Positions 3,085 through 46,778 of a stretch of DNA of 46,986 bases are shown one piece after another; positions within the stretch are counted from its first letter, which is position 1, and each line of letters starts with the position of its first letter. Source of the DNA: Thermoflexus sp. GTDB taxonomy: Bacteria; Chloroflexota; Anaerolineae; B4-G1; SLSP01. The notes beneath the pieces were generated by a model that saw only the letters and a program-made list of their open reading frames with translations, had not been told where the DNA came from and ran no database searches. A program made the position numbers and the translations under genes. The stretch is taken from assembly GCA_020722365.1 (NCBI GenBank), contig DYKY01000002.1, positions 8,266 to 55,251 on the forward strand, read 5' to 3'.

Positions 3085-3296
3085 TGCAAGCTATTCGCGA
3101 AATCCGGACGGTCGAACAGGGACAGATCGTACTCAATTTACCTTCTACACTTTGGGGGCAGCAGGTTGAGGTGATTGTGTTACCCATATCGGCGCAAGAG
3201 GCACAACCTTTTCGGAAGAAGAGTTTGCGGGGTTGTTTACAAGAATACGCTCGACCAGACATAGACCCGGGAACAGAGGAGATAGGAGATGACTGA
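3084..3296 (+). CDS. Small antitoxin-like protein, probably C-terminally truncated orphan
   Basis: 70 aa; VEQGQIVLNLP..VEVIVLP..KKSLRGCLQEYA resembles small antitoxins usually preceding PIN toxins; TAATG overlap with hdrA stop. Confidence 0.5.
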   Translation: MQAIREIRTVEQGQIVLNLPSTLWGQQVEVIVLPISAQEAQPFRKKSLRGCLQEYARPDIDPGTEEIGDD

Positions 3297-3552
3297 GACG
3301 GTAGTCGTAGATGAAGTCATTGTGCCCATCACTGTAGATTATCTGGAAGAAGACGCCGTCTATAAAATCAGTTGTCCGGCGTTGCCTGGATGTCATGCCT
3401 GGGGAGAAACTTTAGACGAAGCCATGCGTCTTATTCCGGCTAACATCCGGGCGCTGTTGGAAGCACGTAAGAGCAAGAACTCCCCTATTCCATCCTTGTT
3501 TGCGCCGCTCCAACCAGAAACGTATCTTGTTCTCAGGATGGTGCCTGCATGA
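3289..3552 (+). CDS. hicB: HicB-family antitoxin
   Basis: YKISCPALPGCHAWGETLDEA motif; GGAG RBS. Confidence 0.85.
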   Translation: MTETVVVDEVIVPITVDYLEEDAVYKISCPALPGCHAWGETLDEAMRLIPANIRALLEARKSKNSPIPSLFAPLQPETYLVLRMVPA

Positions 3553-3761
3553 AATGTCGGGAACTGGTCAAGCGGTTGCGGAAGTCAGGCTGCGAATTTG
3601 TCCGCAACGCGGCCGGTTCACATTGAATCTGGTGGAACCCTGCCAATGGACAATACACGACTATCCCCGATTGGGGAAGTAAGGATTTAAAGATGGGCAC
3701 ATTGCGCAGTATTCTATCCGATCTCGGCTTAACAACGGATGAAATTCTTGGAAAAAGGTAA
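3549..3761 (+). pseudogene. hicA: HicA-family toxin with in-frame TGA at 3624-3626
   Basis: Manual translation MKCRELVKRLRKSGCEFVRNAAGSH*IWWNPANGQYTTIPDWGSKDLKMGTLRSILSDLGL; ATGA overlap with hicB; absent from the ORF track. Confidence 0.85.
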
Positions 3762-3766
3762 AGATT

Positions 3767-4426: not shown

Positions 4427-5294
4427 AACTTACGCTTACTATCCCGGATGCAGCCTGAAGTCCACCGCGAAAGAGTACGATATATCTGTGCGTGCCGTCT
4501 TCGCCAAGCTGGACATTGAATTGCACGAGCTTGAGGGATGGACGTGCTGCGGCGCGACCCATTCCGCCATCTATAACGATGACTCGCGTTTCCTGCTCTC
4601 CCTGCGCAACGTGGCGTTGGCGGAGATGCAAGGGTACGATACCATCGTCGCGCCGTGCAGCGCGTGCTATAAGAACCTGCGCCGCGCGGCTAAGCTGGCT
4701 GAAGCCGACAAAACAATCTGTGCCCGGGTGAACGCCGAAATGGAAGAGACCTTCAGTTGTTCCGGTAAGGTCGAAGTGTTACATCCGCTGTATCTCATTT
4801 TGCGGGATTATGGCCTGGACGCTTTGAAGAAGCGGGTGGTGCGCCCGTTGACCGGCCTGAAAGTTGCTTGCTATTACGGGTGTATGCTTACCCGCCCGGC
4901 GGACGAGTTCGACAGCCCAGAGCGCCCCACGGGGATGGACCGGTTGGTCGAGGCGCTGGGCGCTGAGCCGGTGGAGTACGACTACAAGGCCAAGTGCTGC
5001 GGCGGCGCGATGGCGCTTTCGCATGGGGGAACGACCGCACGTATGGCGGGCAATGTGTTAGCCTCGGCCAAGGAGCGCGGTGCGGAAGTGGTGACGTTGG
5101 GGTGTCCGATGTGTCATATGGCGCTCGATCTATACCAGTCGAAGGCCGAGAAGGTGGTGCAGCGTGATCTGGACTTGCCGGTGGTGTTCTTCACGCAGTT
5201 GATGGGCCTGGCGCTCGGCCTCGAACCGGCGCAGTTGGGCTTGCAGCGGCACATTGTCCCGACGGCAAGCGTCGTCGCGCGAGTTGTGGGATGA
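4419..5294 (+). CDS. hdrB: Heterodisulfide reductase subunit B (two CCG domains)
   Basis: YYPGCS, WTCCGA, PCSACY, YYGC, KCCGG, CPMCH; start set at ATG 4419 after AAGGAG RBS. Confidence 0.92.
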   Translation: MAKTYAYYPGCSLKSTAKEYDISVRAVFAKLDIELHELEGWTCCGATHSAIYNDDSRFLLSLRNVALAEMQGYDTIVAPCSACYKNLRRAAKLAEADKTICARVNAEMEETFSCSGKVEVLHPLYLILRDYGLDALKKRVVRPLTGLKVACYYGCMLTRPADEFDSPERPTGMDRLVEALGAEPVEYDYKAKCCGGAMALSHGGTTARMAGNVLASAKERGAEVVTLGCPMCHMALDLYQSKAEKVVQRDLDLPVVFFTQLMGLALGLEPAQLGLQRHIVPTASVVARVVG

Positions 5295-5557
5295 GTAAGC
5301 GCCTGACTTCGAAACATCAAAAAACCTTGCAAGCTGTCTTTGCCAATCCAGTCCGCAGCAATATCCACTGGTCAGACATAGAAAGTTTGCTGGCGGCATG
5401 TGGGGCAGAGATCAGCGAAGGGAATGGCTCCAGAGTGCGTATTGCATTGAATGGTGTGCGGGCGGTGTTTCACCGGCCTCATCCACAAAAAGAAACAGAC
5501 AAAGGGACTGTAGCTTCGCTGCGTCGATTTCTGACTGAAGCAGGGGTAGAACTATGA
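5291..5557 (+). CDS. hicA: HicA-family toxin (mRNA interferase), intact
   Basis: WSDIESLL..GAEISEGNGSRV..FHRPHPQKE pattern; ATGA overlap with hdrB. Confidence 0.88.
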   Translation: MSKRLTSKHQKTLQAVFANPVRSNIHWSDIESLLAACGAEISEGNGSRVRIALNGVRAVFHRPHPQKETDKGTVASLRRFLTEAGVEL

Positions 5558-5880
5558 TGGAATACAAAGGATATGTCGCACACGTTAAGTTTGATGATGA
5601 GGCCCGTATTTTTCACGGTGAAGTCGTCAATATACGGGATGTAATCACTTTTCAGGGCCAGTCTGTGAGCGAGTTATATCAAGCCTTTCAAGATTCCGTG
5701 AATGATTATCTAGACTTTTGTGTGGAGCGTCATGAGGAGCCGGACACGCCTTTTTCAGGGCGTTTCCTCGTACAACTGCCGCCAGAACAGTATCGCAAGG
5801 TAATCTTTGCGGCTGAAAAAGTGGGTATGGGGGTGGATTCCTGGATCACCGACATTATCGCTCAGGCAGTGAGGGCTTGA
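5554..5880 (+). CDS. hicB: HicB-family antitoxin
   Basis: MEYKGY..FHGEVVNIRDVITFQG.SV.EL..AF..SV.DYL..C, FSGRF; ATGA overlap with hicA. Confidence 0.9.
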   Translation: MMEYKGYVAHVKFDDEARIFHGEVVNIRDVITFQGQSVSELYQAFQDSVNDYLDFCVERHEEPDTPFSGRFLVQLPPEQYRKVIFAAEKVGMGVDSWITDIIAQAVRA

Positions 5881-34532: not shown

Positions 34533-35573
34533 CTATTTACTTGCTGACCACGCGCGCGCCGCAGCCAGCAACGCATCGATGTTTTCTGGGCGTGTTCCCG
34601 GTGAAACGCCGCCGCCGAACGAGAGGATCATCCCCCCGCCCGGTGCAGCTTTATCCAGGCATTCCTTCGCCCACTGTGCGACCTCTTCTGGCGTTCCGCG
34701 CACGCCCATATCCAGCGGGGGCACGTTGCCCATCAGCGCAACCCGGTGTCCCATTGCTTCTTTGACCTTGGCGATGTCCACCTCGTGGCTGAAGTTAAAG
34801 ACGTCGAAATTCGCGTCGGCCAGGCTTTCCAGCAGGTGGGGACAAGGGGTGTCGTTGTGATAGATACGGATCAGACCCTCGAATTCATCGAAGATGCGGC
34901 GGAGATGCGGATGGACCATCTTCCCGTAATGGCGCTTCGACACCATGCCGACGAGGTCGTCCAACACCATGATGCCCTCCGGCGCCTTGAGCACGTCCAG
35001 TTGCGCGTGGAGCCAGCGGATGATGGATTCGGTCACCGTCTCCAAAAGTTTACTCGTCTTTTCCGGTTCGGTGACCAGCCCCATCATCAAAGGGGATATG
35101 CCCAATAACCACGAAGCCACCGTCATTGGCCCACGGGCACAGACCATCTTGATGCCCAGGCCTTCGGCCTGCAAACGCGCGTCCATCACTTCGTAGAGGC
35201 GCAATACCAACGGCATGAGGCCATCCTCTTGTGGATTCGCGGGTTTGGCAGTTGCCCAAAAATCCAGGTCCGGTATTAGCGGCTCGATCGAGGGCGGTCG
35301 ATTGTTGAAAAAACGCACCTTGGTGCCAAAGGCTGAAGGCTCGGCCGCCATGCCAAACTCGACCCAAAAGCCGGGAATCCACACAGCGCCGGGGAAACGC
35401 TCCAACAGCCCTTTGTTGATCGTCAACCACTTCTCTGGGAAAAGAAAATAATCCCGCGTATCGATGCCCGCGTAGCCGGGTAGCCATGGGCTGTCCACAA
35501 TCAACCCTACCGGAACCTGTTCCGGCTCACCCAACCGCGCCGCGACTTTGAAATTGTCCCACACTGTGCTCAT
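34533..35573 (-). CDS. Uroporphyrinogen decarboxylase / MtaA-CmuA family protein
   Basis: GPMTVA..G, DD..G.VS, IYHND, LMGNVPP..GTPEEV, GGMILSFGGGV.PGT..ENI; AGGAGG RBS. Confidence 0.85.
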   Translation of the reverse strand: MSTVWDNFKVAARLGEPEQVPVGLIVDSPWLPGYAGIDTRDYFLFPEKWLTINKGLLERFPGAVWIPGFWVEFGMAAEPSAFGTKVRFFNNRPPSIEPLIPDLDFWATAKPANPQEDGLMPLVLRLYEVMDARLQAEGLGIKMVCARGPMTVASWLLGISPLMMGLVTEPEKTSKLLETVTESIIRWLHAQLDVLKAPEGIMVLDDLVGMVSKRHYGKMVHPHLRRIFDEFEGLIRIYHNDTPCPHLLESLADANFDVFNFSHEVDIAKVKEAMGHRVALMGNVPPLDMGVRGTPEEVAQWAKECLDKAAPGGGMILSFGGGVSPGTRPENIDALLAAARAWSASK

Positions 35574-35593
35574 TTTGCTCCTCCTTCCTTCGA

Positions 35594-35625
35594 AAATCGG
35601 CGAATCGACGAATCAGCGAATTAAG
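35594..35625. repeat. Octamer tandem AAATCGGC GAATCGAC GAATCAGC GAATTAAG
   Basis: Same GAATCAGC unit family as 9856-9895. Confidence 0.6.
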
Positions 35626-35673
35626 AAATCCGGTACGACAGAGTATAAGTTCTCTTTGGTGAGATGTCAAAAA

Positions 35674-35946
35674 AGCAATCAGCTATCAGCAATCAGCTAT
35701 CAGCAGTCAGCTATCAGCAGTCAGCTATCAGCAGTCAGCTATCAGCAGTCAGCTATCAGCAATCAGCAATCAGCTATCAGCAGTCAGCTATCAGCAATCA
35801 GCAATCAGCTATCAGCATCCAGCAACCCGTAACCCACAATCCGTAACCCACAACCCACAATCCGTAACCCACAACCCACAACCCGTAACCCACAACCCGT
35901 AACCCACACCCCACAACCCGTAACTCGCAACTCATAACCCGCAACT
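35674..35946. repeat. Compound heptamer array: 20 AGCTATC/AGCARTC units plus 2 degenerate units, then about 17 CGTAACC/CACAACC-type units
   Basis: Counted directly; located between divergent genes. Confidence 0.95.
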
Positions 35947-35951
35947 ATTTC

Positions 35952-35979
35952 TTGCATATCTCCTGCTTTTGCCTATACT
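35952..35979 (+). promoter_or_regulatory. Putative promoter for a leaderless transcript heading the cassette array
   Basis: TTGCAT (35952)-16 bp-TATACT (35974), 6 nt before ATG 35986; no RBS. Confidence 0.55.
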
Positions 35980-35985
35980 CAAAGT

Positions 35986-36826
35986 ATGATTCATCCGCAG
36001 CTTGAGAACAAAGTCATCCTGATTACCGGCGCGAACCACGGCATTGGCGCGGCGACGGCGCGGGCGTTAGCGGCGCAAGGGGCGAAAGTCTTCATTACCT
36101 TCTACCGCGTTCCGTGTCGCTACACGGAACAAGAACTGGTGCAGGCGCTCGACGCCGGGACCGGTGGGGACGCGCTGTACTGCGCGATCCAGCAGCGGAC
36201 CGCCGACGCGCTCGTGGACGACATCCGGGCGCAGGGCGGGCCGCCGTGGCGCTTGAGGCCGACCTTGCTGATCCCGCCACCGTCCCGTTGCTCTTCGACC
36301 GCTGCGAAGCCGAACTCGGTCCGGTGGACGTACTCGTCAACAACCACACCTACTGCGTCCTCGAAACCTTCGACCCGGCCCGCGTCACGGATGAAGAGAG
36401 CGGCGTCCGTTTGCTCACCGCGCCCGTCATCGACGCGCACTTCGCGGTCAATGCGCGCGCCTACGCCCTGCTGATGGCCGAGTATGTCCAACGCTACCTG
36501 AAACGGAACGCGCGCTCAGGCCGCATCATCAACCTGAGCACCGATGCCGCGCACGCCCACGAGTCCAACGTCAGCTACGCCGCCAGCAAGCACGCGATTG
36601 AATCGTACAGCCGTTCGGCGGCTTCGGAACTGGGGCAGTATACGGCATCACCGTCAACATCGTGGCTCCTGGTCCGATCCAGACCGGCTACATCACGCCG
36701 CAGTCGGAAGCGGAGATTGCCGCCGGGACCCCGCTTGGCCGCATCGGCGAACCTGAAGACGTGGCGGACGTCATCGTCTTCTTCGCCTCCGAGCAGGCGC
36801 GATGGCTGACGGGGCAACTGCTGTAG
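35986..36826 (+). pseudogene. SDR-family oxidoreductase with two frameshifts and a truncated 3' end
   Basis: TGANHGIG in frame 1; VLVNN and YAASK in frame 2 after ~36241; GITVNIVAPGPIQT..WLTGQLL* in frame 3 after a TA duplication at ~36640. Confidence 0.88.
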
Positions 36827-36963
36827 AATCCGAAGAAGTCCAGCCGGGGGTGATTCTGGACTTTGACGCTAATGGGCGTGTGGTGAGGGTAGAGATGCTG
36901 ACGCTAAGTTTGCGCGTTGAGCCGGAAAAATTGCGAATGTTGCAGTTTGAAACGGTTGGGTAA
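36823..36963 (+). pseudogene. 3' fragment of a DUF2283-like gene
   Basis: Manual translation VESEEVQPGVILDFDANGRVVRVEMLTLSLRVEPEKLRMLQFETVG*; no start codon or N-terminus. Confidence 0.7.
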
Positions 36964-36986
36964 GAGGGTCTAAAGGAGTCACCAGG

Positions 36987-37268
36987 GTGGAATCGCAATA
37001 TGAAATAATCTGGACTGACTATATGCGTTATAGGGCAGAATTGCGTGGTTTTGAGCTTGCCAGGATTGAAGCTATTGTCAGGTATTCAAATGAGTGGTAT
37101 ATGGATGTCGAGACTGGACGCTCGATCGTAGTTGGACGCATAAATGATATACTGGTGATGGTTCCGTGTGATATTGCACCGGAGGCGATCACGCCCGTCA
37201 CGATTCATGCCACAACGCGCCAGCAGATTAATTTTCGGCTTAAAACAGGGAGATTTACCCATGAGTGA
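36987..37268 (+). CDS. Putative toxin (DUF4258/RelE-like) of a two-gene TA-like module
   Basis: 93 aa, WTDYMRYRAELRG..VTIHATTRQQ; AAGGAG RBS; overlaps the downstream DUF2283 gene. Confidence 0.6.
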   Translation: MESQYEIIWTDYMRYRAELRGFELARIEAIVRYSNEWYMDVETGRSIVVGRINDILVMVPCDIAPEAITPVTIHATTRQQINFRLKTGRFTHE

Positions 37269-37497
37269 AACGCGAATGATGTATTTTGAGAAAGAGGATG
37301 TTTTACATTTAAGTATTTCGGATGAACCCGAAATGGGTAGCGTTGAGTTGGGGCCTAATATCACCGTAGAATTAAATGCCAAGGGGGAAATTATTGGCGT
37401 TGAAATTCTAGCCGCCAGTCATTTCATTCGAGACTCGATTATGGAATCCGTGCAGGCTAAAGTTTTGCGTATCCCCGAACTGCAACCGGCTTGGTGA
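37261..37497 (+). CDS. DUF2283-family protein (putative antitoxin)
   Basis: YFEKEDVLHL..SVELGPNITVELNAKGEIIGVEILAAS; start ATG 37261. Confidence 0.8.
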   Translation: MSETRMMYFEKEDVLHLSISDEPEMGSVELGPNITVELNAKGEIIGVEILAASHFIRDSIMESVQAKVLRIPELQPAW

Positions 37498-37500
37498 TTT

Positions 37501-37971
37501 ATGAACATCGGCATCATCGTCTATTCCCTCACCAACCATACCCTGACGGCGGCTACGCGCCTGAAAGAAAAACTGTCCGCGGATGAGCACGAAGTGACCC
37601 TGGAACGGGCGGAAACCGTCGGCCCGGCGAAGCCGCAGTTCGAGAACGCTGAACTGAAGACAAAGCCCCCGGTTGATGGCTACGACGCGCTGGTGTTTGC
37701 CTGCCCCGTGCGGGGAGGCACGATTCCATCGCCGATGAAGCGCTATCTGGAGCAGATTCCGTCGTTGCAGGATAAGAAAGTGGCGTGTCTGGTCACGCAC
37801 TTCTTCCGGCGGGAGTGGGGGGCCAACCAGGTGCTCGCGGCAATGCAGGCACTCTGCGAATCCAAAGGCGCGACCGTCCGCGGAACGGGCGATGTGCGAT
37901 GGTTCAGCCTGCATCGCAAGCAGCAGATTGCACAGGTTGTTGAGAACGTGAGTCAGTTATATGGCAGTTAA
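37501..37971 (+). CDS. Flavodoxin-like protein
   Basis: IIVYSLTNHT FMN loop, YDALVFACPV, LQDKKVACLVT. Confidence 0.85.
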   Translation: MNIGIIVYSLTNHTLTAATRLKEKLSADEHEVTLERAETVGPAKPQFENAELKTKPPVDGYDALVFACPVRGGTIPSPMKRYLEQIPSLQDKKVACLVTHFFRREWGANQVLAAMQALCESKGATVRGTGDVRWFSLHRKQQIAQVVENVSQLYGS

Positions 37972-38923
37972 CAGAGATAAGCCGGATAGATGGAAAGACG
38001 ATATGGCGCAGTCGGTGGATATGTACAACGACTGGTTTATGCGCTTTGCGCCTGAGGCCTATCGAACTACGCGTGTGCAGACAACCAACGATGTCGAGGC
38101 GACGCTCAAAGCAACCAGGAACCTGATGGATGTCGGGGTGGAGCTACTGAAGACGCGCCCGTCGGTGTTGCCATCACTGCGAATGTGCACTTGTCCACCG
38201 CTGGCTGTGGACCGGTTGATCGGACTCGCCGGTGTATCGGGAAACCTCGTCAAGGTTATGGAAAAGCACAATAGGTTGCCGTTGCGCATGTCTCAGGTTG
38301 AGCTAGACCGTGATCTTGAAAAGATTGGAGCGACTATCGAGAGGATGGCCGACCCAGATATATTCGTCTGGCTGGAACGCGGCAATGATCCGTCGGAACT
38401 GGAGTTGTATCGCGCCGCAACGATTGTCGCAGACCGCTTGTGCGGCGCTGTCGCCAATCCGATCATCCGCAATGCACAGGAAAAGCGCCAGCTTGCCGCA
38501 ATCGGTGAGTGGCTCACGGCTTTGGGCTACCGGAATTTGCCGGCAGGCGAGGGGACGAAGTTCGACGCGATGCAGCCGGGGACATTTTCATTCCGATTGA
38601 ACGTGCCTGTTGAACAGGAAGGCACGGGCAAGACGATCAATATTCCGGTAGATGCCGTTGTTATGCCGAAGACGGCGCGACCAGGCGACCTGCCGTTGCT
38701 GATCGAGGCGAAGTCGGCAGGGGATTTTACGAATGTCAACAAGCGCCGCAAGGAAGAAGCCACGAAGATGAACCAGTTGCGCCGGACTTACGGAAAGGAC
38801 GTGCGGTTCATCCTGTTCCTGTGCGGGTATTTCGACAGCGGGTATCTCGGCTACGAGGCGGCAGAAGGCATCGACTGGGTATGGGAGCACCGTATCGACG
38901 ATCTCCGGGAGTTTGGCCTGTAG
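37961..38923 (+). CDS. Type II restriction endonuclease, XamI family
   Basis: PVD..IEAKSAGD PD-(D/E)XK core; NVNKRRKEEA, GYFDSGYLGYEAAEGIDWVWEHR. Confidence 0.85.
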   Translation: MAVNRDKPDRWKDDMAQSVDMYNDWFMRFAPEAYRTTRVQTTNDVEATLKATRNLMDVGVELLKTRPSVLPSLRMCTCPPLAVDRLIGLAGVSGNLVKVMEKHNRLPLRMSQVELDRDLEKIGATIERMADPDIFVWLERGNDPSELELYRAATIVADRLCGAVANPIIRNAQEKRQLAAIGEWLTALGYRNLPAGEGTKFDAMQPGTFSFRLNVPVEQEGTGKTINIPVDAVVMPKTARPGDLPLLIEAKSAGDFTNVNKRRKEEATKMNQLRRTYGKDVRFILFLCGYFDSGYLGYEAAEGIDWVWEHRIDDLREFGL

Positions 38924-40510
38924 ATGATGACAACAGCGATTGCCGAACTTGAGGCGCGACGACTGGCCTTGCAAGATGCGTTGGACGCGAAGAAAGAAGC
39001 GGCCGAACGGAATAGGATGGGGCAATTTGCGACACCCACTCAATTGGCCGTTGACATTCTGCGGTATGCCAGGGCGCAACTCGGCAAGAGCGAGAACGTG
39101 CGTTTCATTGACCCAGCAATCGGTACGGGAGCGTTCTATTCGGCCCTGCTCGACGTGTTCTCGAAGGAGCGTATCGGTGCGGCGGTCGGGTACGAGATCG
39201 ATCCATACTACGGTGCGCCAGCAGCAGAATTGTGGCGCGACACGGGACTGGATATCCGTCTCGAAGACTTTACACGGGCCGAAGCGCCGGCGGATACCGA
39301 AAAGTTTGATCTGCTGATCTGCAATCCGCCCTATGTACGACATCACCACCTCATCAACGGCGAGAAACAGCGCTTGAAGCTGCGCGCGCAGGATGTCTGC
39401 GGCGTCGAGATCAGCGGGCTGGCCGGGCTGTATTGCTATTTCCTCGGTCTGAGCCACGCGTGGTTGAAAGATGGCGGATTGGCCGGATGGCTTATCCCGA
39501 GCGAATTTATGGATGTGAACTACGGTGTTGCGGTGAAGCGGTATCTGCTCGACAAGGTGACGTTCCTGCACATTCACCGGTTCGACCCCAACGACGTGCA
39601 GTTCAATGATGCGCTTGTATCGTCAGCCGTGGTGTGGTTTCGCAAGGAGCCGCCGTCGCCGGAGCAGCAAGTACGGTTCACTTACGGCGGTTCGCTGCAA
39701 CGGCCGAAGTTGGAACGCCTGGTGCCGGTCGAGACGTTGCGTCGCGATCCGAAGTGGACGCGCTACCCGCTGAAGGAGAGCTACGAACCCACTGAAGGAC
39801 CGGTTCTGAGCGATTTCTTCAAGATCAAGCGTGGCCTGGTTACGGGAAACAACGATTACTTCATCCTGCCGGTCGAGGAAATCGCGCGGCGCGGATTGCC
39901 GATGGAGGCATTCAAGCCGATACTGCCGAGTCCCAGGGACTTGCCGGATGACGAGGTCAAAGCGGACAAAGCAGGCAATCCCATTCTTGAGAAGCAGTTG
40001 TTCCTTCTGGATCCCCCGTGGACCGAAGAGAAAATTAGAAACCATTACCCGAAGTTGTGGGCGTATCTCGAAGAGGGTAAAGCGCAGGGGGTCGCGGAAA
40101 GCTATCTGTGCAGGCATAGAAATCCCTGGTATGCCCAGGAAGATCGCCCGCCGGCGCCATTTGTATGTACTTATCTTGGCCGGAGCGACAAAAAGAACGG
40201 GCGGCCGTTCCGCTTCATCCTGAACCACTCGCAGGCGACGGCCGCGAATGTGTATTTGATGCTCTATCCAAAGTCGCCGCTTGCGCGCGCTCTACAGGAT
40301 AGCCCGGAACTGAAACGGCGGGTTTGGCTGTGTCTGAACGAGATTTCCACGAAGGCGCTGCTCGCTGAAGGCCGCGTCTACGGCGGCGGGCTGCACAAGC
40401 TCGAACCGCGCGAACTTGGCAATGTACCCGCCAGGTTTATACTGGACTTGTTGCCGGATGTTCGCGCGCCAAAGGTCCCTAAACAACTTGGACTCTTTGC
40501 CGGGGCATGA
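38924..40510 (+). CDS. N6-adenine DNA methyltransferase (gamma class), cognate to the XamI-like REase
   Basis: GQFATP, DPAIGTGAF (SAM), CNPPYVRHH, GRVYGGGLHKLEPREL. Confidence 0.9.
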   Translation: MMTTAIAELEARRLALQDALDAKKEAAERNRMGQFATPTQLAVDILRYARAQLGKSENVRFIDPAIGTGAFYSALLDVFSKERIGAAVGYEIDPYYGAPAAELWRDTGLDIRLEDFTRAEAPADTEKFDLLICNPPYVRHHHLINGEKQRLKLRAQDVCGVEISGLAGLYCYFLGLSHAWLKDGGLAGWLIPSEFMDVNYGVAVKRYLLDKVTFLHIHRFDPNDVQFNDALVSSAVVWFRKEPPSPEQQVRFTYGGSLQRPKLERLVPVETLRRDPKWTRYPLKESYEPTEGPVLSDFFKIKRGLVTGNNDYFILPVEEIARRGLPMEAFKPILPSPRDLPDDEVKADKAGNPILEKQLFLLDPPWTEEKIRNHYPKLWAYLEEGKAQGVAESYLCRHRNPWYAQEDRPPAPFVCTYLGRSDKKNGRPFRFILNHSQATAANVYLMLYPKSPLARALQDSPELKRRVWLCLNEISTKALLAEGRVYGGGLHKLEPRELGNVPARFILDLLPDVRAPKVPKQLGLFAGA

Positions 40511-40536
40511 GAGCTTGCTAACAATGGCTTACCGCC

Positions 40537-40713
40537 GTGGTCACGCATTTCTTCCAGCGAGAGTGGGGGGCCAACCAGGTGCTTGCGTCGATGCAGACGC
40601 TTTGTGAATCCAAGGGCGCGACTGTCCGCGGCGTGGGCGATATGCGCTGGTTCAGCTTGCATCGTGAGCAGCAGATCGCGCTGGTTGTTGAGGACTTGAG
40701 TAGGTTGTTTTGA
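40537..40713 (+). pseudogene. Second, diverged copy of the flavodoxin 3' end (58 codons)
   Basis: Gap-free manual alignment to 37789-37962: 144/174 nt identical. Confidence 0.92.
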
Positions 40714-40730
40714 GTTAAGGACTGGTTTTT

Positions 40731-41825
40731 ATGACGACAAGACTGTTTGAGCAAGCCAAAAAGAATAAAGCGGACGAGTTTTACACGCAACTGCCGGATA
40801 TCGAGGCGGAAATGCGCCATTATCGCGAGCAGTTTCGTGGTAAGGTCATTTTTTGCAATTGCGACGATCCGTACGAGAGCAATTTTTTCAAATACTTTGC
40901 GATGAATTTCAATTTCTTGGGTCTCAAAAAGCTGATCGCGACGTGCTATACCGAATCCCCTGTTGTGGGTGAGCAATTGTCGTTGTTTGACGTAAAAAGT
41001 CTCGACATGCCAAACGGAGATGCTAAACTTCCTTACAAAATTGAGATTACTGAAGTCAGGGATGAAAACGCTGACGGTGCGGTTGATCTGGCAGACGTTG
41101 AGTATCTGCTCAAAAACAGAAGAAACACGCTCACGTTGTTGCAGGGCAACGGCGATTTTCGTTCCCCCGAATGTATCGAATTGCTGCAAGAAGCCGATAT
41201 CGTGGCAACCAATCCGCCGTTTTCGTTGTTCCGTGAGTATGTGGCGCAGTTGGTTGAGTATGACAAGAAATTTATCATTATTGGCAGCAAAAACGCTATA
41301 ACGTATAGAGAGATTTTCAAGCTGATACAAGAAAACAGACTTTGGCTCGGTAATGGTTTTCCAAATGGAAATGCTTTTTTTAGAATCCCTGCGGAATATT
41401 CACGCGAATGGGCAAACGGGGTATATGATCCAGAGACAGGGTTAGTGAAATTTCGTAACGTTGGCTGGTTCACGAATTTGGATTTTGAGAAACGCCACGA
41501 ATCCATAACTTTATACAAGCCCTATACTCCCGAAGAATACCCGCGCTATGTCAATTACGACGCTATCGAAGTGTCGAAAACCGCCGAAATCCCCTACGAT
41601 TATGACGGAGAAATGGGCGTTCCAATTACATTCCTCGATAAATACAATCCTGAACAGTTTGAGATTATTGGGTCAAGCAGGCTTGTTGGAAAGCCGATGT
41701 CTCAATTTGCCCAAAAAGGAGCCTATGTAGAGGGTGGCATGAGGTTCTATCTTCGGAATGGGGATGGCACTTATCAACGTCTTTACGACAGGATTGTGAT
41801 CAAGCGGAAAGGCAGTCAACAATGA
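40731..41825 (+). CDS. Adenine-specific DNA methyltransferase, EcoRI family
   Basis: AKKNKADEFYT, CNCDDP.ESNF, GDFRS.EC, TNPPFSLFREY, MGVPITFLDKYNPEQF. Confidence 0.9.
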   Translation: MTTRLFEQAKKNKADEFYTQLPDIEAEMRHYREQFRGKVIFCNCDDPYESNFFKYFAMNFNFLGLKKLIATCYTESPVVGEQLSLFDVKSLDMPNGDAKLPYKIEITEVRDENADGAVDLADVEYLLKNRRNTLTLLQGNGDFRSPECIELLQEADIVATNPPFSLFREYVAQLVEYDKKFIIIGSKNAITYREIFKLIQENRLWLGNGFPNGNAFFRIPAEYSREWANGVYDPETGLVKFRNVGWFTNLDFEKRHESITLYKPYTPEEYPRYVNYDAIEVSKTAEIPYDYDGEMGVPITFLDKYNPEQFEIIGSSRLVGKPMSQFAQKGAYVEGGMRFYLRNGDGTYQRLYDRIVIKRKGSQQ

Positions 41826-42904
41826 AAATCGAATTGCACGAAATCACCGTCCGCGACGTAGCGGGAAACTACGTTGATAACGCCGAAGAAGGCGTCGTAG
41901 GTTATAACGGCAGGCTCAATATCCGCCCGAAATACCAGCGCGAGTTTGTCTATGATGAGAAGAAGCGCAACGCCGTGATGGATACGATTTGCAAAGAATT
42001 TCCGCTCAATGTGATGTATTGGGTAAAAAACGAAGACGGGACTTTTGAAGTTTTGGACGGGCAACAACGGACGATCAGTTTTTGCCAGTACGTCAAAGGC
42101 GATTTTTCCGTAGACAATCGCGCCTTTCACAACCTCACGAACACCGAACAAGAGCAGATATTAAACTATAAGCTGATGGTCTATTTCTGCGAGGGCAACG
42201 ATAAGGAGAAACTGGATTGGTTCAGAATCATCAATATTGCCGGCGAAAGGCTCACCGACCAGGAATTAAGGAACGCTGTCTATACCGGAACCTGGCTGAC
42301 CAGCGCCAAATCCATCTTCAGCAAAAGCAACTGCGCGGCGTATCTTTTAGCCAAAGACTATGTGAATGGCTCGCCGATACGTCAAGAAATCCTCGAAACG
42401 GCTTTAGGTTGGATTTCAAACGGCGAGATTGAAAAATACATGTCCATTCACCAACACGACCCCAATGCGAATGAGTTATGGATATATTTCAGGAATGTGA
42501 TTGAATGGGTCAAACTCACCTTTACGACCTACCGCCGGGAAATGAAGGGCATTAACTGGGGCAGTCTGTATGGTCAATTCAAAGGTGATATGTTTGACAC
42601 GCAACAGTTAGAGCGGGAAATACAAGCTCTGATGACGGATGATGATGTCACAGCCAAGAAGGGCATCTATCCGTATGTACTGACTCGCAACGAAAAATAC
42701 TTGAATGTTCGCGCTTTTACCGACAGTCAAAAAAGAGCGGCATACGAAAGGCAGAAAGGCATCTGTGTAAGATGCGGCAAACACTTTGAATTGCGCGACA
42801 TGGAAGCAGACCATATTACTCCCTGGCATCTTGGCGGAAAAACAGTACCAGAGAACTGTCAAATGCTTTGCATGGAGTGCAATCGGACAAAGTCTGGCAA
42901 ATAA
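41822..42904 (+). CDS. DUF262 (ParB/Srx-like, GmrSD-type) + HNH endonuclease
   Basis: PKYQREFVY, LDGQQR, F..IN..G..L; C-terminal CVRC..EADHITPW..GGKT..NCQMLCMECN. Confidence 0.88.
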   Translation: MKIELHEITVRDVAGNYVDNAEEGVVGYNGRLNIRPKYQREFVYDEKKRNAVMDTICKEFPLNVMYWVKNEDGTFEVLDGQQRTISFCQYVKGDFSVDNRAFHNLTNTEQEQILNYKLMVYFCEGNDKEKLDWFRIINIAGERLTDQELRNAVYTGTWLTSAKSIFSKSNCAAYLLAKDYVNGSPIRQEILETALGWISNGEIEKYMSIHQHDPNANELWIYFRNVIEWVKLTFTTYRREMKGINWGSLYGQFKGDMFDTQQLEREIQALMTDDDVTAKKGIYPYVLTRNEKYLNVRAFTDSQKRAAYERQKGICVRCGKHFELRDMEADHITPWHLGGKTVPENCQMLCMECNRTKSGK

Positions 42905-42925
42905 AGAGTGCCGCTGAGTTATTAA

Positions 42926-43087
42926 GCTCTCGCAGCCGTGCTCAGGGATTTCAACCACCTCGTTCTGGAAGATGTTCCCATCCCTGAACCGAAATTGGGG
43001 GAAGTCGTTGTCTGCATCAAGGCGTGCGGCATTTGCGCTACCGATTACAAAGCGATTAATGGAATTTGGTGTAGTGTGGATTGTTAA
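42926..43087 (+). pseudogene. 5' fragment of a Zn-dependent (MDR) alcohol dehydrogenase
   Basis: Manual translation LAAVLRDFNHLVLEDVPIPEPKLGEVVVCIKACGICATDYKAING then unrelated sequence and a stop; no ATG. Confidence 0.8.
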
Positions 43088-43115
43088 TCTGTAGAAATTC
43101 GCTTCAGGAGGTACA

Positions 43116-43493
43116 ATGAGCGTTGAGTTGAAAGAACCCCGCTTGTTGGCGCGTGTCGAGCGATTGGCTGCCGACTGCACACAACCGGCAGAACGTATTG
43201 TGGAAATGGCCGTGCAACTCTATTTGGACAAGCTGGACGCGGACGCCATTCACGCAGAAACCGAAGCCTTTTGGACGATGCACGCGGAGTTGGTCGCCCA
43301 GTACGCCAACCACCACGTAGCGATTTATGAGGGTGAAATCGTAGATCATGACCAGGATGCGCGACGTTTGGAAGCACGTATCCGGGAGCGATTCGGCGCT
43401 GCGCCAGTGTTGATCGCGCAGGTGACCCCGCACGCGCGGCGTGACTTGCGGTGGCGCGGCGGACGATTGGAAAGACTTGGAGCAACGCTATGA
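43116..43493 (+). CDS. Small antitoxin-like protein (DUF5678-like C-terminus)
   Basis: AGGAGG RBS; ELVAQYANHHVAIYEGEIVDHD; ATGA overlap with the protease gene. Confidence 0.6.
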   Translation: MSVELKEPRLLARVERLAADCTQPAERIVEMAVQLYLDKLDADAIHAETEAFWTMHAELVAQYANHHVAIYEGEIVDHDQDARRLEARIRERFGAAPVLIAQVTPHARRDLRWRGGRLERLGATL

Positions 43494-43867
43494 CGGTGAC
43501 GCCCTATAACACAACGTATGATCCCCTTGTGCCGGTGTGTGATATCACTTTGGAATCAGCAGAGGGCGCACGGGTAACGCTTGTGGCTTTGATCGATACC
43601 GGCGCAGATGCCACTTTGATACCTGTCCCCCATCTGCGTGCTATCGGTGCGCGGCGGGTGTTTGAAATGGGATTGCGGAGACAATGGGGCGAACGGCGCA
43701 TGGTGTACTTGTATCTGGTGGATGTCCATGTCGGCGGGGTGACGTTACCCGGTGTCTATGTGGTGGGTGATGAAATGGGCGATGAGGTGATTTTGGGACG
43801 CGATGTGCTGAATCGTTTGCGCATCACACTTGACGGCCCGGCGTTGTTGACCCGATGGTTGGAGTGA
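43490..43867 (+). CDS. Retroviral-like (clan AA) aspartyl protease
   Basis: ALIDTGADATLIP and ILGRDVL motifs. Confidence 0.85.
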   Translation: MTVTPYNTTYDPLVPVCDITLESAEGARVTLVALIDTGADATLIPVPHLRAIGARRVFEMGLRRQWGERRMVYLYLVDVHVGGVTLPGVYVVGDEMGDEVILGRDVLNRLRITLDGPALLTRWLE

Positions 43868-43875
43868 GAGATAGT

Positions 43876-45507
43876 GTGACACAATCTAGCGAATTCCCTC
43901 CACTTTTGATAGAAAACTTGTCCTTCCAATACCGGACGCGCGAGCAACCGGCAATTGAGGATGTGTCGTTCACGCTGCATGCGGGCGAGCTGCTGCTCGT
44001 GGCCGGGTCCAGCGGCTGCGGCAAGACGACGCTCATCCGCTGCATCAACGGGCTGGTTCCCCGCAGTTACAAGGGCAACCTGCAGGGGCAAGTGTTGCTC
44101 CACGGGCAAGATATTTCCGACATGCCGTTGTCGCGCATCTCGCAGATCGTCGGCACGGTGCTGCAAGACCCGGAACGCCAAATCCTGGGGGCGCACGTCT
44201 TCACCGAGGTCGCCTTCGGCCTGGAGAACCTGGGCCTGCCGCGCGACGAAATCCGCCAGCGGGTGGATGAGACGCTCGACTACCTGGGGATTGCCCATCT
44301 GCGCGACCGCGAGACCTTCTACCTCTCCGGCGGCGAGAAACAGAAGGTGAGCCTCGCCGGGGTGTTGGCGATGCGGCCCGACATCCTCTTGCTCGATGAA
44401 CCGCTCGCCAGCCTCGATCCGGCGAGCGCGCGGGAGGCGCTGGCGCTCTTCCGCCGTCTGGCCGACGAGGGCGTGAGTATCCTCCTGGTTGAACACCGGG
44501 TCGAGGATGCGTTGGGCATCCGCCCCGACCGGGTGCTCTTTATGCAGGATGCCAGGATCGTCCACGCCGGCCCGCTGGACGAGGTGATGGGGTTGATGGA
44601 TTACCGCCAGGTCAAGCTGCCTGCGCCAGTTGTGATGGAGCGCGCGGCCAAAGTGCCGCTTCCGCCCTTCGAGCCGGCGATCAAGCCCAACGGACGCGAT
44701 CCGCTGGTGACGTTCGAGGATGTTGCGTTTTCCTACGAAAGCGGCGCGGAGGTCATCCATGGCGTCAATCTCACGCTGCGTCACGGCGACATCACGGCGA
44801 TCCTCGGCCCGAACGGTGCGGGGAAGACGACGCTGGTCAAACACGCCATCGGCCTGCTGAAACCCAGCCAGGGTCGCGTGCTGGTCGAAGGAACCGACAC
44901 CCGCAAAATGAGCGTCGCGCAGATCGCGCACACGTTGGGCTACGTGTTCCAAAGCCCCAGTCACATGCTTTACGCGCCGACCGTGCGCGAGGAGCTGGCC
45001 TTTGGGCCAAAAAACCTGGGCTTCAGCAAAGAGGCCATCGAAGCCGGCGTCGGCGAGGCGCTCGATGCCGTCAACGTGCGCGCGTTGGCGGATTATCCGC
45101 CGCTTTCGCTCTCCTTCGGGCAGCAGAAGCGGGTCAGCATCGCGGCGGTGTTGGCGATGCGCTCCAAAATCCTGGTGATGGATGAGCCGACCGCCGGGCA
45201 GGATTACTGGAATTATATCGCCTTTATGGATTCCATCCTGCAGACGCCGGGATTTGCGGCCATCCTCTTCATCACGCACGATCTCGATCTGGCGATTTGC
45301 TACGCCAACCGGGTCGTGCTGATGCATGGGGGCCAAGTCGTCGGCGACGGGGCGCCATCCGAGGTTCTGGCCGATCTTGACTTGCTGGAGCGCTGCCGCC
45401 TGGTACCGACGTCGCTGTTGAAGGCGAATTTGGCGCATCTGCCGGAGACGGGACGCTTTATGTCGGCGGAAGCGTTGGCGCATGCTCTAGTAGACAGTAG
45501 ACGGTAG
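43876..45507 (+). CDS. ECF transporter fused double ATPase (A-A')
   Basis: GSSGCGKTT, QDPE.Q, LSGGEKQK, LLDEP; second GPNGAGKTT, LSFGQQKR, VMDEPT. Confidence 0.92.
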   Translation: MTQSSEFPPLLIENLSFQYRTREQPAIEDVSFTLHAGELLLVAGSSGCGKTTLIRCINGLVPRSYKGNLQGQVLLHGQDISDMPLSRISQIVGTVLQDPERQILGAHVFTEVAFGLENLGLPRDEIRQRVDETLDYLGIAHLRDRETFYLSGGEKQKVSLAGVLAMRPDILLLDEPLASLDPASAREALALFRRLADEGVSILLVEHRVEDALGIRPDRVLFMQDARIVHAGPLDEVMGLMDYRQVKLPAPVVMERAAKVPLPPFEPAIKPNGRDPLVTFEDVAFSYESGAEVIHGVNLTLRHGDITAILGPNGAGKTTLVKHAIGLLKPSQGRVLVEGTDTRKMSVAQIAHTLGYVFQSPSHMLYAPTVREELAFGPKNLGFSKEAIEAGVGEALDAVNVRALADYPPLSLSFGQQKRVSIAAVLAMRSKILVMDEPTAGQDYWNYIAFMDSILQTPGFAAILFITHDLDLAICYANRVVLMHGGQVVGDGAPSEVLADLDLLERCRLVPTSLLKANLAHLPETGRFMSAEALAHALVDSRR

Positions 45508-45533
45508 ACAGTAGACGGGTGAAGGGTAAAGGG
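45490..45533. repeat. Heptamer tandem (GTAGACA GTAGACG)x2 then GGTGAAG GGTAAAG; supplies the ATPase stop codon
   Basis: Read directly; TAG 45505-45507 lies inside the third unit. Confidence 0.8.
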
Positions 45534-45670
45534 AGCGAAAGCCTTTTCATGACTTGGGATGTAGCCCGAAAGGCAGCTCAAAGGGCTTTGCTCTTTTGGC
45601 GTGGGGGGTTCAACCCCACGTTTGGTAAGGATGCGTGCAGGGGACGCGCCGGGGGAGGGACGTGTTCTGC
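45528..45670. other. Cluster of hairpins (structured leader or REP-like elements) before the S component
   Basis: 45528-45547 pairs with 45580-45597 around CCGAAAGG; CGTGGGG/CCCCACG (45600-45620); imperfect GCAGGGGACG/CGTGTTCTGC. Confidence 0.5.
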
Positions 45671-45726
45671 TGCTCGATCGTTGAAGGTATCGTATTTTAG
45701 TATTTCTCACGAAAGGAGATGAACGT

Positions 45727-46629
45727 ATGACTGAACAACCAAAAACCAATCGCGCAGTCACCTGGCTCGTTGTGTTGGCCGCCTTTGTGGTGTTATTAGC
45801 CCTGGCCAGCATCCTCACCAGCGGCGACAAGATTCGCGGCGTAGCCCCGATCGGGGTCACCGCTCTTGGTCTCATCGCTGTTTTCGCCGTCTATCTTGTC
45901 ACGGCCAAGAGCGACGCCTGGAAGGTCGAGACCCGGCAGGTTGTCTATATGGCGATTGGCGCGGCGCTTTATGGCGTCTTCAACTACATCTTCAACACGA
46001 TCCCGATGCCGTCCGTCAGCCAGGTATCGCTGCGCCCTTCGATCTGCATCCCGGTGTTCTTCGGCTACGTCTTCGGCCCCGTGGTCGGGTTCTTCACCGG
46101 GGCCGTGGGCAACATCCTCGGTGACTTCATCACCGGCTGGGGCGTGTATCCGGCATGGGATCTCGGCAACGGCTTGATGGGGTTGGTTCCGGGACTGGTG
46201 ATGCTCTTTGTCGACAAGAAGCGCAGCCTCAACTTTCTCACCATCCTGGTCGGTGTGCTGATGGTCATCGCCGTAGCGTTGATCTTCATCAATCCAGAAG
46301 TGCCCGGCCCGTGGACCGGCGAGATCGAGGACTTTTCCTTCTGGGCCTGGGCTTTCCTCATCGGTGGCGCGGTGGTGATCGCCGGACGGTTTATCCTGGA
46401 GCGATTCAGCGTAGACCTGGCGGCGGTGAACCTGTGGGGCACGTTGGCCATCATCATCGGCATCGGCTTCGCCGCCCTCGCCGACATCTGGGTCAACGGC
46501 TACAGCTTCGCCACGGCCATCATCGGCGAGTTCGCGCCGGCGGCCGGCCCCAACATCCTCAACTCGATGATCCTGACGCCGATTTTGTTGGCCGCTTACG
46601 AGGCTGTACAAGGCCGGATTGGCCGGTAA
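45727..46629 (+). CDS. ECF transporter substrate-binding S component, extended with extra TM helices
   Basis: VVYMAIGAALY, FGPVVGFFTGAVGNILGD, W.LGNGLMG; AAGGAG RBS. Confidence 0.85.
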   Translation: MTEQPKTNRAVTWLVVLAAFVVLLALASILTSGDKIRGVAPIGVTALGLIAVFAVYLVTAKSDAWKVETRQVVYMAIGAALYGVFNYIFNTIPMPSVSQVSLRPSICIPVFFGYVFGPVVGFFTGAVGNILGDFITGWGVYPAWDLGNGLMGLVPGLVMLFVDKKRSLNFLTILVGVLMVIAVALIFINPEVPGPWTGEIEDFSFWAWAFLIGGAVVIAGRFILERFSVDLAAVNLWGTLAIIIGIGFAALADIWVNGYSFATAIIGEFAPAAGPNILNSMILTPILLAAYEAVQGRIGR

Positions 46630-46636
46630 TGTGAGA

Positions 46637-46748
46637 TGCCGACCACGAATGTTAGCACGAATAAACGAATAGGCGCCTTCGCTTGTGCGGATTTGCGTTG
46701 AGCGGACGGTTTGAATTCGTTTATTCGTTTCGTCATTCGTGGTCGGCA
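46637..46748. repeat. 112-bp palindromic element with nested perfect inverted repeats
   Basis: TGCCGACCACGAATG/CATTCGTGGTCGGCA (15 bp) and ACGAATAAACGAAT/ATTCGTTTATTCGT (14 bp). Confidence 0.9.
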
Positions 46749-46778
46749 AGCCAACTCAAACCATAAAGGGACAATGAT

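Follow-up and report, generated by a model that had tools for sequence, protein, structure and literature searches.

The DNA analysed here is a stretch of 46,986 nt (the window, to whose positions all coordinates refer) of the Thermoflexus sp. assembly GCA_020722365.1 (contig DYKY01000002.1, positions 8,266 to 55,251), and it contains an array of defence and toxin-antitoxin (TA) genes interspersed with fragments of other genes at 35986-43867. The source genome, designated G000, is a metagenome-assembled genome (MAG) of 249 contigs, of which the 67.7-kb contig C149 carries the array. Results of our analysis indicate that this array is probably one allele of a genus-wide chromosomal hotspot of uncultured Anaerolineae (Chloroflexota). 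Hidden Markov model searches place all its genes on the + strand, in the orientation of the flanking genes, and assign its cargo to two complete type II restriction-modification (R-M) systems, namely a XamI-family restriction endonuclease (REase) with an N6A methyltransferase (MTase) and an EcoRI-family MTase with a DUF262-HNH REase, and to two TA-like pairs, DUF4258-like/DUF2283 and DUF5678/aspartic protease. Pfam matches were obtained for 16 of the 18 open reading frames (ORFs) scanned in the array region. The gene order proposed earlier from the letters of this DNA, without database searches (the sequence-only reading), was reproduced call by call in the profile searches, with the exception of a 93-aa ORF, assigned by language-model features, and a 58-aa stub, recognised by a DNA match. 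Equally borne out was its description of the junctions as tiny or overlapping: neighbouring array genes either overlap or are separated by spacers of 0-33 nt.

The array begins with a short-chain dehydrogenase/reductase (SDR) gene. A putative promoter of this gene (35950..35985, + strand), TTGCAT-16-TATACT, was read from the sequence, with the -10 element ending 7 nt before the ATG. This stretch is conserved, as the alignments of relatives begin 37-97 nt upstream of the SDR ATG (35889-35949), and it is absent from the list given by a consensus promoter scan; neither promoter-like sites (11 vs. 7.4 ± 2.8 in shuffled sequences) nor terminator-like sites (17 vs. 13.9 ± 3.9) exceed expectation. 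Two adjoining arrays of heptamer-based tandem repeats (35674-35945) lie in the intergenic region that separates the SDR promoter from the divergent URO-D gene, with ~21 copies of AGCAATC/AGCTATC followed by ~17 copies of CAACCCG/CAACCCA, and similar repeats occur on many contigs of related genomes. The SDR gene (35986..36825, +) is a pseudogene matching adh_short of Pfam in two frames, at 35986-36474 and 36114-36809. Compared to five intact relatives, it has lost 1 nt after position 36239 and gained 2 nt at 36639-36640, and its last ~31 nt are lost or replaced at 36825/36826, the joint with a piece of a DUF2283 gene. This 3' stub (36826..36963, +; ORF 36802-36963), fused to the truncated SDR gene, covers positions 19-47 of the 49 positions of PF10049 and shows 80% nt and 84% aa identity to a full-length DUF2283 gene that G000 carries on contig C151.

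The first TA-like pair comprises a 93-aa putative toxin (36987..37268, +) and a DUF2283 putative antitoxin (37261..37497, +; PF10049, 2.2e-12), the start of the latter gene being overlapped by the final 8 nt of the former. The 93-aa ORF has no match in Pfam, NCBIfam or PADLOC, and its likeness to DUF4258, based on language-model feature matches to DUF4258 clusters (0.91-0.95), is a lead only. The partner of the DUF2283 gene is not constant: in the congener G007, its orthologue (87% nt identity) sits behind a DUF6036 nucleotidyltransferase gene (L013:7869-8591) instead. A second co-oriented array is present on contig C151 of G000 (L101:329-3479), where a 91-aa ORF, a PIN (VapC-like) gene and a 214-aa gene are followed by a truncated DUF4258-like ORF, the full-length DUF2283 gene, which is parent-like to the stub 36826-36963, an N6_N4 methylase gene and a 132-aa gene.

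The flavodoxin-like gene (37501..37971, +; FMN_red/Flavodoxin_5 of Pfam) represents the upstream anchor. Its product ends in ...SQLYGS instead of the usual ...LSRLF because the start of the XamI gene overlaps it. The XamI-family type II REase (37961..38923, +; PF09572, RE_XamI, 7.7e-119; PADLOC REase_II PDLC03552, 5.9e-110) and its partner, an Eco57I/N6_Mtase-type adenine MTase (38924..40510, +; Pfam; PADLOC MTase_II PDLC03328, 1.6e-139), are followed by a 3' stub of the flavodoxin gene (40538..40718, +; codons ~97-157), which is 83% identical in nucleotide sequence to 37790-37971 and forms an open 58-aa frame (40537-40713) ending in LSRLF, with no Pfam match. The second R-M system consists of an EcoRI-family adenine MTase (40731..41825, +; PF13651, 7.6e-141; PADLOC MTase_II PDLC03297) and a type II REase with DUF262 (GmrSD_N) and HNH domains (41822..42904, +; Pfam; PADLOC REase_II PDLC03418, 1.1e-140, full length). 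In both systems, as predicted from sequence, the REase and MTase genes are adjacent and give full-length PADLOC type II matches, with E-values from 5.9e-110 to 1.1e-140. The GC content of the EcoRI-type module is 45-46%, vs. 52-65% in neighbouring genes, and because of this low, foreign GC the module appears to be a later arrival. Site avoidance in the G000 genome was considered as a proxy for the activity of the two systems and set aside, because many palindromes are avoided there and the specificities are assumed from family names; GTCGAC occurs at 0.43 of its expected frequency, which ranks it 18th of 64 palindromes, and GAATTC at 0.94. Strong avoidance of GGGCCC (0.09 of Markov expectation), GAGCTC (0.11) and CAGCTG (0.16) may point to further restriction systems, active now or in the past.

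Downstream of the second R-M system lies a 5' stub of a zinc-dependent alcohol dehydrogenase (Zn-ADH) gene (42929..43087, +; ORF 42938-43087), with a weak ADH_N match (E=0.0036). The stub is 89% identical in nucleotide sequence to one at the matching place in G007 and shows 70-81% aa identity to the N-termini of Zn-ADHs of G076 and G077, which belong to another genus; the gene of G077 is full-length (347 aa). The second TA-like pair comprises a DUF5678 protein, the antitoxin-like partner (43116..43493, +; PF18929), and a retropepsin-like clan AA aspartic protease (AspP; 43451..43867, +; PF13975/PF13650/PF00077, with a TIGR03698 match below cut-off), whose gene overlaps the start of the downstream anchor. 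A paralogous pair is encoded on contig C119 of G000, and 3' remnants of the AspP gene stand directly upstream of the anchor in G001 and G002. In this pair, too, the partners vary, DUF5678 being accompanied by the aspartic protease in G000 (43116-43867) and by TumE, via a 94-aa ORF, in the metagenome locus L021 (13445-14488), while in locus L026 (4394-5516) TumE stands behind DUF5678. The downstream anchor is the double-ATPase gene of an energy-coupling factor (ECF) transporter (43855..45507, +; ABC_tran x2; TIGR04520/TIGR04521), followed by the gene of its S component of riboflavin/folate type (45727..46629, +; PF07155; NF010182 below cut-off). Immediately 3' of the S gene, the region 46637-46760 shows many loose ends and small indels in contigs from four metagenomes and contains a 34-nt inverted repeat (46637-46670 / 46715-46748); it may represent a further variable boundary, or else a repeat.

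Since the repeated flavodoxin sequence could in principle mislead an assembler, and the MAG is split into 249 contigs, the array might be a concatenation of strain variants. The probable source run was also assembled separately; this assembly, which is independent only as an assembly because it comes from the same sample, recovered 35788-45518 on one contig of 9731 nt with 0 differences and an even depth of 12.6. Additionally, the junction between the XamI-partner MTase, the flavodoxin stub and the EcoRI-family MTase was found again in another species, G011, with 86% identity, and other junctions of the array recur in G001, G002, G005, G007 and L021. A chimeric assembly, which the sequence-only reading had named as one outcome that would speak against it, is therefore barely credible.

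The locus was compared in 10 of the 11 congeneric genomes, titled Anaerolineae MAGs (G008 was left out). The contigs of G005, G007 and G011 stop inside the locus, and that of G004 covers only the ECF genes and ~550 nt upstream of them. A scan of metagenomes with flavodoxin as the anchor gave 79 loci, eight of which (L020-L027) belong to the same genus, with some redundancy: L022 and L023 are arranged alike, L026 and L027 are 100% identical where they overlap, L024 corresponds to G003, and L020 shares ~97% identity with G011. The array content of G000 is shared by none of the 10 congeners, and the metagenome contigs add at least four arrangements. When genomes and contigs are taken together, eight different genes directly follow the full-length flavodoxin gene, and the interval between the SDR and flavodoxin genes occurs in seven states. 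Despite this variability of cassettes, which is confined to ~2-8 kb, the SDR, flavodoxin and ECF genes recur, the flavodoxin gene being present in 5 of the 10 congeners and in the 8 metagenome contigs. Homology between relatives breaks off in short spacers or at stub edges. For instance, homology of the ECF ATPase gene starts at 43875-43884 (~codon 7-10) in the alignments of 8 of 11 relatives, with unrelated DNA upstream; the alignment starts earlier in G006 (43858), G001 (43713) and G002 (43733), in the latter two inside the AspP gene. Thus, the clustering of at least two recognised systems (two type II R-M systems according to PADLOC), the variable content and the conserved flanks characterise the locus as a defence hotspot, and the pattern predicted by the sequence-only reading, of cassettes that differ between relatives while anchors persist and breakpoints fall at fragment edges, was found.

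The extent of the variation is best illustrated by particular genomes. In G010, the order is EamA, an intact SDR gene, GNAT, flavodoxin, a 746-aa methylase fusion and ECF, while in G007 the SDR gene is followed by two small ORFs, DUF6036, DUF2283, flavodoxin, genes of 467 aa and 276 aa, the ADH stub and ECF. The locus of G005 comprises SDR, a 146-aa gene, HNH, the full flavodoxin gene and the EcoRI-family MTase gene, where the contig ends; that of G011 the XamI R-M system, a flavodoxin stub, the EcoRI-family MTase, the HNH REase, a 76-aa gene and ECF; that of G002 the end of EamA, a decayed flavodoxin gene, the XamI R-M system, DUF5678, an internally deleted protease gene and ECF; and that of G003 a 77-nt SDR stub, flavodoxin, a 94-aa gene and ECF. 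In G001, G006 and G009, the locus holds different genes, and remnants of the protease gene or of DUF5678 precede ECF. Loci of relatives also contain other MTases, Mrr-like and HNH nucleases, TumE, DUF6036 and PIN-type modules, and the metagenome contigs of the same genus add a SAM methyltransferase, Mrr-like nucleases, a RecA/KaiC-like ATPase with DUF3788, TumE and a 776-aa gene of no family. Among contigs of two other metagenomes, designated X2 (a hot spring) and X3, an X2 contig has the MTase gene followed by a 77-nt piece of the flavodoxin stub (40609-40685) and then DUF5678, with 2430 nt (the EcoRI-type R-M system and the ADH stub) missing, and an X3 contig has flavodoxin position 37940 joined directly to 43103, before DUF5678.

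Several hotspot genes are candidates for defence functions by their position. The 776-aa protein (L022:3964-6294 and L026:5707-8037) has no Pfam or PADLOC match, and neither has the 276-aa protein of G007 (L013:10635-11465); the 467-aa protein encoded next to the latter (L013:9110-10513) has a weak PGPGW match (E=6.6e-4, below cut-off) and a weak match to PADLOC PDC-M01B (E=2.4e-5 to 6.3e-4). The anchors are not invariant either. The ECF ATPase and S genes (43855-46629) fall into two allele classes, one ~70% identical to G000 in nucleotide sequence (G011, L021, L022/L023, L026) and the other 80-92% identical (other congeners), which suggests that the anchor operon itself may have been replaced by diverged DNA. 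The sequence-only reading treated SDR, flavodoxin, ADH and ECF genes as a metabolic operon invaded by cassettes. Outside the genus, nine flavodoxin loci (55-69% identity) show no link to SDR or ECF genes, and therefore the gene grouping is genus-specific rather than an old metabolic unit; the idea of a deep ancestral operon was dropped.

Loss is a visible component of this variation, and variants would be expected to arise by deletion alone if an ancestor had carried all the modules, with stubs as deletion scars and no ongoing gain. The 3' truncation and frameshifts of the SDR gene, the internal deletion of the AspP gene in G002 and its 3' remnant in G001, an X2 contig with a truncated XamI gene beside an intact MTase gene, and the flavodoxin stub reduced to a 13-nt relic in G002 are all in line with such decay. 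However, the presence of a stub together with a full copy of the same gene cannot result from deletion alone, and at least eight unrelated genes occupy the slot after flavodoxin. The GC content of the EcoRI-type module, lower by ~10 points, and the coexistence in the genus of two ECF-ATPase allele classes, with nucleotide identities of ~70% vs. 80-91%, also point to gain, so that differential decay as the only process appears quite improbable.

The fragments at the module junctions are true partial copies of neighbouring genes: the 3' part of flavodoxin, the 5' part of Zn-ADH, the 3' part of DUF2283 and, in relatives, the 5' part of the ECF ATPase gene. They occur in two orientations, the upstream anchor being represented by 3' stubs and the downstream anchor by 5' stubs. 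G000 and G011 carry the flavodoxin 3' stub, a part of which is also present in one X2 contig; G000 and G007 have the ADH 5' stub, and G003 and L024 a 5' stub of the SDR gene. The ECF-ATPase 5' stubs, one of which precedes the 776-aa gene in L022/L023 and two of which are carried by L026, begin at the gene's own ribosome-binding site and start codon and stop near codon 27 or 62. A full-length parent was found in G000 for the DUF2283 stub (C151), and none was found there for ADH or SDR, whose parents the sequence-only reading had proposed to search for. Its further suggestion that stubs travel with the cassettes fared less well. For the ECF stubs, identity is 75-76% with the full copy of their own contig and 81-82% with the alleles of other genomes, and so they look like scars of the resident allele at least as much as like travelling pieces. 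The divergence within the pairs (83% identity for flavodoxin, 75-76% for ECF) indicates that the stubs probably come from diverged alleles, and it argues against a fresh target duplication.

Indications of recombination within a stub concern that of flavodoxin. In G000, the XamI R-M system is flanked by 182-bp direct repeats, namely the 3' end of the full flavodoxin gene (37790-37971) and the stub (40538-40718). The junction in which the flavodoxin stop codon and 17 nt are followed by the EcoRI-family MTase gene is identical after the full flavodoxin gene of G005 and after the stub of G000. In X2 and G002, DUF5678 comes after the stub instead, which gives the stub two right-hand contexts. The joint between the XamI-partner MTase gene and the stub is homologous in G000 and G011, and the stub of G011 shares 91-92% identity with its own lineage's full copy (L020; 91% over 177 nt) vs. 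81% with the G000 stub. This combination fits crossovers or gene conversion inside the ~180-bp stub patch, and in this respect the sequence-only reading, which placed recombination at the gene pieces, found support. An apparent shared breakpoint at flavodoxin position ~287-290 in the G002 remnant and the G000 stub was considered and not used, as the G002 spacer looks like a heavily deleted flavodoxin 3' end and its alignment is unreliable.

A different origin of the modules would be a conventional mobile element (integron, integrative conjugative or mobilizable element, transposon or prophage remnant) whose recombinase was lost or is encoded beyond the DNA sampled. The fragmentary nature of the MAG contigs, three of which (G005, G007 and G011) end inside the locus, leaves room for this, and a palindromic insert of ~105 nt, resembling a miniature inverted-repeat transposable element, is present in G011 between the flavodoxin stub and the EcoRI-family MTase gene (L014, C50, ~2555-2665). 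Its predicted hairpin has -46 kcal/mol, and its short duplicated target resembles the flavodoxin stop region. This insert indicates that small mobile elements do visit the locus; it is not present in G000 or the other compared loci. On the other hand, neither an integrase nor a transposase was found among the 45 ORFs of the window and the 14 ORFs on the remainder of the 67.7-kb contig C149, nor among 102 ORFs scanned across the loci of relatives, and the only three matches to the tyrosine recombinase family PF00589 in G000 are on other contigs (C129, C150 and C228). No tRNA, tmRNA or Rfam match lies near the array, the only two tRNA genes of the window being at 13.6-13.8 kb. No attC-like sequence or recurrent direct or inverted junction repeat was detected in 35500-44100, nor were flanking att-like repeats, and spacers of 0-33 nt leave no room for attC sites. 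These results agree with the sequence-only reading, which had reported no integrase, transposase or attC-like repeat, and they make delivery by a conventional mobile element very unlikely.

Taken together, the data are likely to reflect a defence/TA hotspot diversified by ordinary homologous recombination in conserved anchors and, from time to time, by illegitimate joins through which modules are stacked and stubs stay behind. No dedicated recombinase would take part. DNA from related lineages would be exchanged by RecA-type homologous recombination in the anchor genes (SDR, flavodoxin and the ECF ATPase gene), which would swap the intervening content. Occasionally, one end of the incoming DNA may join illegitimately inside an anchor gene or, alternatively, a looped-out circle may integrate via a single crossover. 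By either route, a module would be added rather than substituted, and a partial copy of the anchor, the stub, would stay at the junction, where it could afterwards serve as a new homology patch. Small deletions would wear the modules down, as is suggested by the SDR pseudogene, the stub of DUF2283 and, in relatives, what remains of the AspP gene. The shared strand and tight junctions of the modules would follow from their always being exchanged between homologous loci, and presumably also from a reliance of the modules on read-through transcription.

Some points weigh against this explanation. Each step of the mechanism is deduced from end states in MAGs and metagenome contigs, no event having been seen directly, and Campbell-type integration, homology-facilitated illegitimate recombination (HFIR) and long target duplication are indistinguishable with the present data. 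The identities on which recombination in the stub is based come from 156-182 nt only, and on its shorter side the X3 joint is covered by just 33 letters that match, with the likeness threshold set at 90%. The position of breakpoints at gene boundaries may be due to selection among survivors instead of mechanism. The frame of the flavodoxin stub stays open, with a ratio of non-synonymous to synonymous substitution (dN/dS) of 0.28 in comparison with the G011 stub (13 synonymous and 16 non-synonymous changes), whereas a mere scar would be expected to behave otherwise. How each module first entered the locus is not accounted for by homologous exchange. A homologue of ComEC is encoded in G000, but also in 10 of 14 control genomes, and so it is not diagnostic of competence.

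The stubs may also be viewed as parts of a distinct, self-perpetuating system, in which promoterless modules carry pieces of anchors as portable arms, loop out as circles and re-insert by single crossover, which would amount to a selected integron-like platform without IntI and attC. The 182-bp direct repeats around the XamI R-M system are a suitable substrate for RecA-mediated loop-out and Campbell-type re-insertion, stubs occur at several junctions in several lineages, L026 has two successive ECF-ATPase stubs, one ahead of each module, and the low dN/dS of the open flavodoxin stub is in accord with such a role. Yet L026 also carries a XamI R-M system without a downstream stub, and the ECF stubs are closer to other alleles than to the adjacent full copy, as resident scars would be. 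No joints inside the array that would mark looped-out, excised or circular forms were found in the contigs of the source sample (X1), although this negative result is weak, as contigs drop rare variants. General recombination suffices for all the data, and the part of the work on effector-immunity arrays considered here (Kirchberger et al. 2017, PMC5361080) describes the same architecture for type VI secretion system (T6SS) immunity arrays and for orphan modules of Rhs and contact-dependent inhibition systems. We regard such a system as rather unlikely.

A second locus of the window is relevant to this question. An Hdr/Mvh-like operon (Fer4, HdrA/FlpD, HdrC-like, HdrB-like CCG and Fer4) contains variable in-line TA modules in two slots, 3078-3763 and 5291-5880, of which the first holds a HicB-like gene (3289-3552) and the second HicA (5291-5557) with HicB (5554-5880). 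The first slot is empty in G007, G010 and G002 and holds other DNA in G011, and the second is empty in G010 and G011 and holds other DNA in G002. The first insert runs from start codon to start codon, spanning exactly from the overlap of the HdrA stop and HdrC start (TAATG) to an ATG that is formed anew for the HdrC-like gene. The presence of such modules in the Hdr-like operon indicates that the habit is wider than a single site, and it speaks for the self-perpetuating system described above. It is conceivable, although distinctly unlikely, that at several loci the modules are in-line inserts in transcription units, with stubs as portable homology arms for loop-out and re-insertion by host recombination. 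In this view the inserts stay translationally coupled, as in the start-to-start insert of the Hdr-like operon and in the ECF-ATPase stubs, which open with the ribosome-binding site. If this were true, they would constitute a recombinase-free functional analogue of the integron for immune genes.

With exchange and illegitimate joining at the anchors as the preferred explanation, the locus offers a well-resolved record of the gain, stacking and erosion of immune and addiction modules without mobile-element machinery in a lineage that has no cultured representative. The stubs make single events readable, as they reveal the gene that acted as the anchor and the position of the illegitimate joint. 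The anchors, i.e., the flavodoxin 3' end and the ECF-ATPase 5' end, can be used as baits for new defence candidates in metagenomes, such as the 776-aa, 467-aa and 276-aa genes, and models of hotspots and displacement that are based mostly on Proteobacteria are extended to Chloroflexota.

The resemblance to integrons deserves attention. Integrons comprise IntI, attI and cassettes with attC sites, the latter being imperfect inverted repeats of roughly 55-140 nt, and chromosomal integrons include TA modules among their cargo. Similarly, the array described here consists of co-oriented, apparently promoterless modules, with TA genes among them, stacked behind a possible common promoter. Unlike integrons, it has no IntI, attI or attC: no PF00589 match is present on the array contig, no attC separates the cassettes, and the boundaries are gene stubs or plain spacers.

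The closest general counterparts appear to be defence hotspots free of mobile genetic elements (MGEs). According to the part of the survey by Oliveira et al. (2017, PMC5635113) considered here, MGEs are missing from many hotspots, which recombine at the core genes on their flanks. As far as the consulted text of this survey and of Johnson et al. (2023, PMC10250203) goes, such core hotspots share with the locus of G000 the variable defence genes between conserved flanks, the lack of an integrase and recombination at the flanks. The locus differs from them, to the same extent of the sources, in its small size (~2-8 kb), in the co-orientation of all genes, in junctions that overlap or have at most 33 nt, in the partial duplicates of flanking genes and in its occurrence in uncultured Anaerolineae.

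In turn, the XamI R-M system resembles R-M insertions with long target duplication, described in the relevant part of Furuta, Abe & Kobayashi (2010, PMC2853133) as an R and M gene pair without mobility genes between direct repeats of more than 30 bp. As in that description, an R and an M gene (XamI and its MTase, 2.55 kb, i.e., below 20 kb) are present without mobility genes. The repeats in the examples given there match a single copy in genomes that lack the insert and are short and nearly identical (e.g., 43-45 of 46 bp). Single-copy counterparts occur here as well, in G005, where one flavodoxin 3' end is followed by the EcoRI-family MTase gene, and in the X3 joint (33 letters on its shorter side). 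Near-identity is absent, with 83% over 182 nt in G000 and 91% over 177 nt in G011/L020, and the repeats of G000 differ from those examples also in their length (182 bp) and in their position inside a coding gene. A repeat identity of 83% fits an exchange between diverged alleles, or an old event with gene conversion.

The arrangement of remnants is reminiscent of the T6SS effector-immunity arrays of V. cholerae, in which, as presented in the available part of Kirchberger et al. (PMC5361080), sequential displacement of HFIR type leaves remnants and arrays without an integrase, and which its authors explicitly compare with integrons. There, a conserved anchor is followed by strain-variable modules, new modules push old ones along, and remnants of the anchor or effector remain. 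A conserved anchor, flavodoxin with its eight downstream neighbours, likewise stands in our locus beside modules that differ between genomes, and anchor remnants stand beside displaced modules (G000 and G011; L022/L023 and L026), with the same EcoRI-family MTase in the primary position in G005. In contrast to these arrays, which in the same source consist of toxin-immunity genes with a single upstream anchor, the cargo here comprises R-M and TA modules, with anchors on both sides. The proposal of the sequence-only reading that the locus represents an undescribed system is thus not upheld, since, within the portions of the three studies considered (PMC5635113, PMC2853133 and PMC5361080), the pattern is already covered; its underlying observation of integrase-free variation between anchors is confirmed, and its claims of a new system and of stub transport are not. 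The locus is best read as an integrase-free, stub-marked stacking hotspot, explained by known processes with described analogues, and as a clean new example from Chloroflexota rather than a new kind of system.

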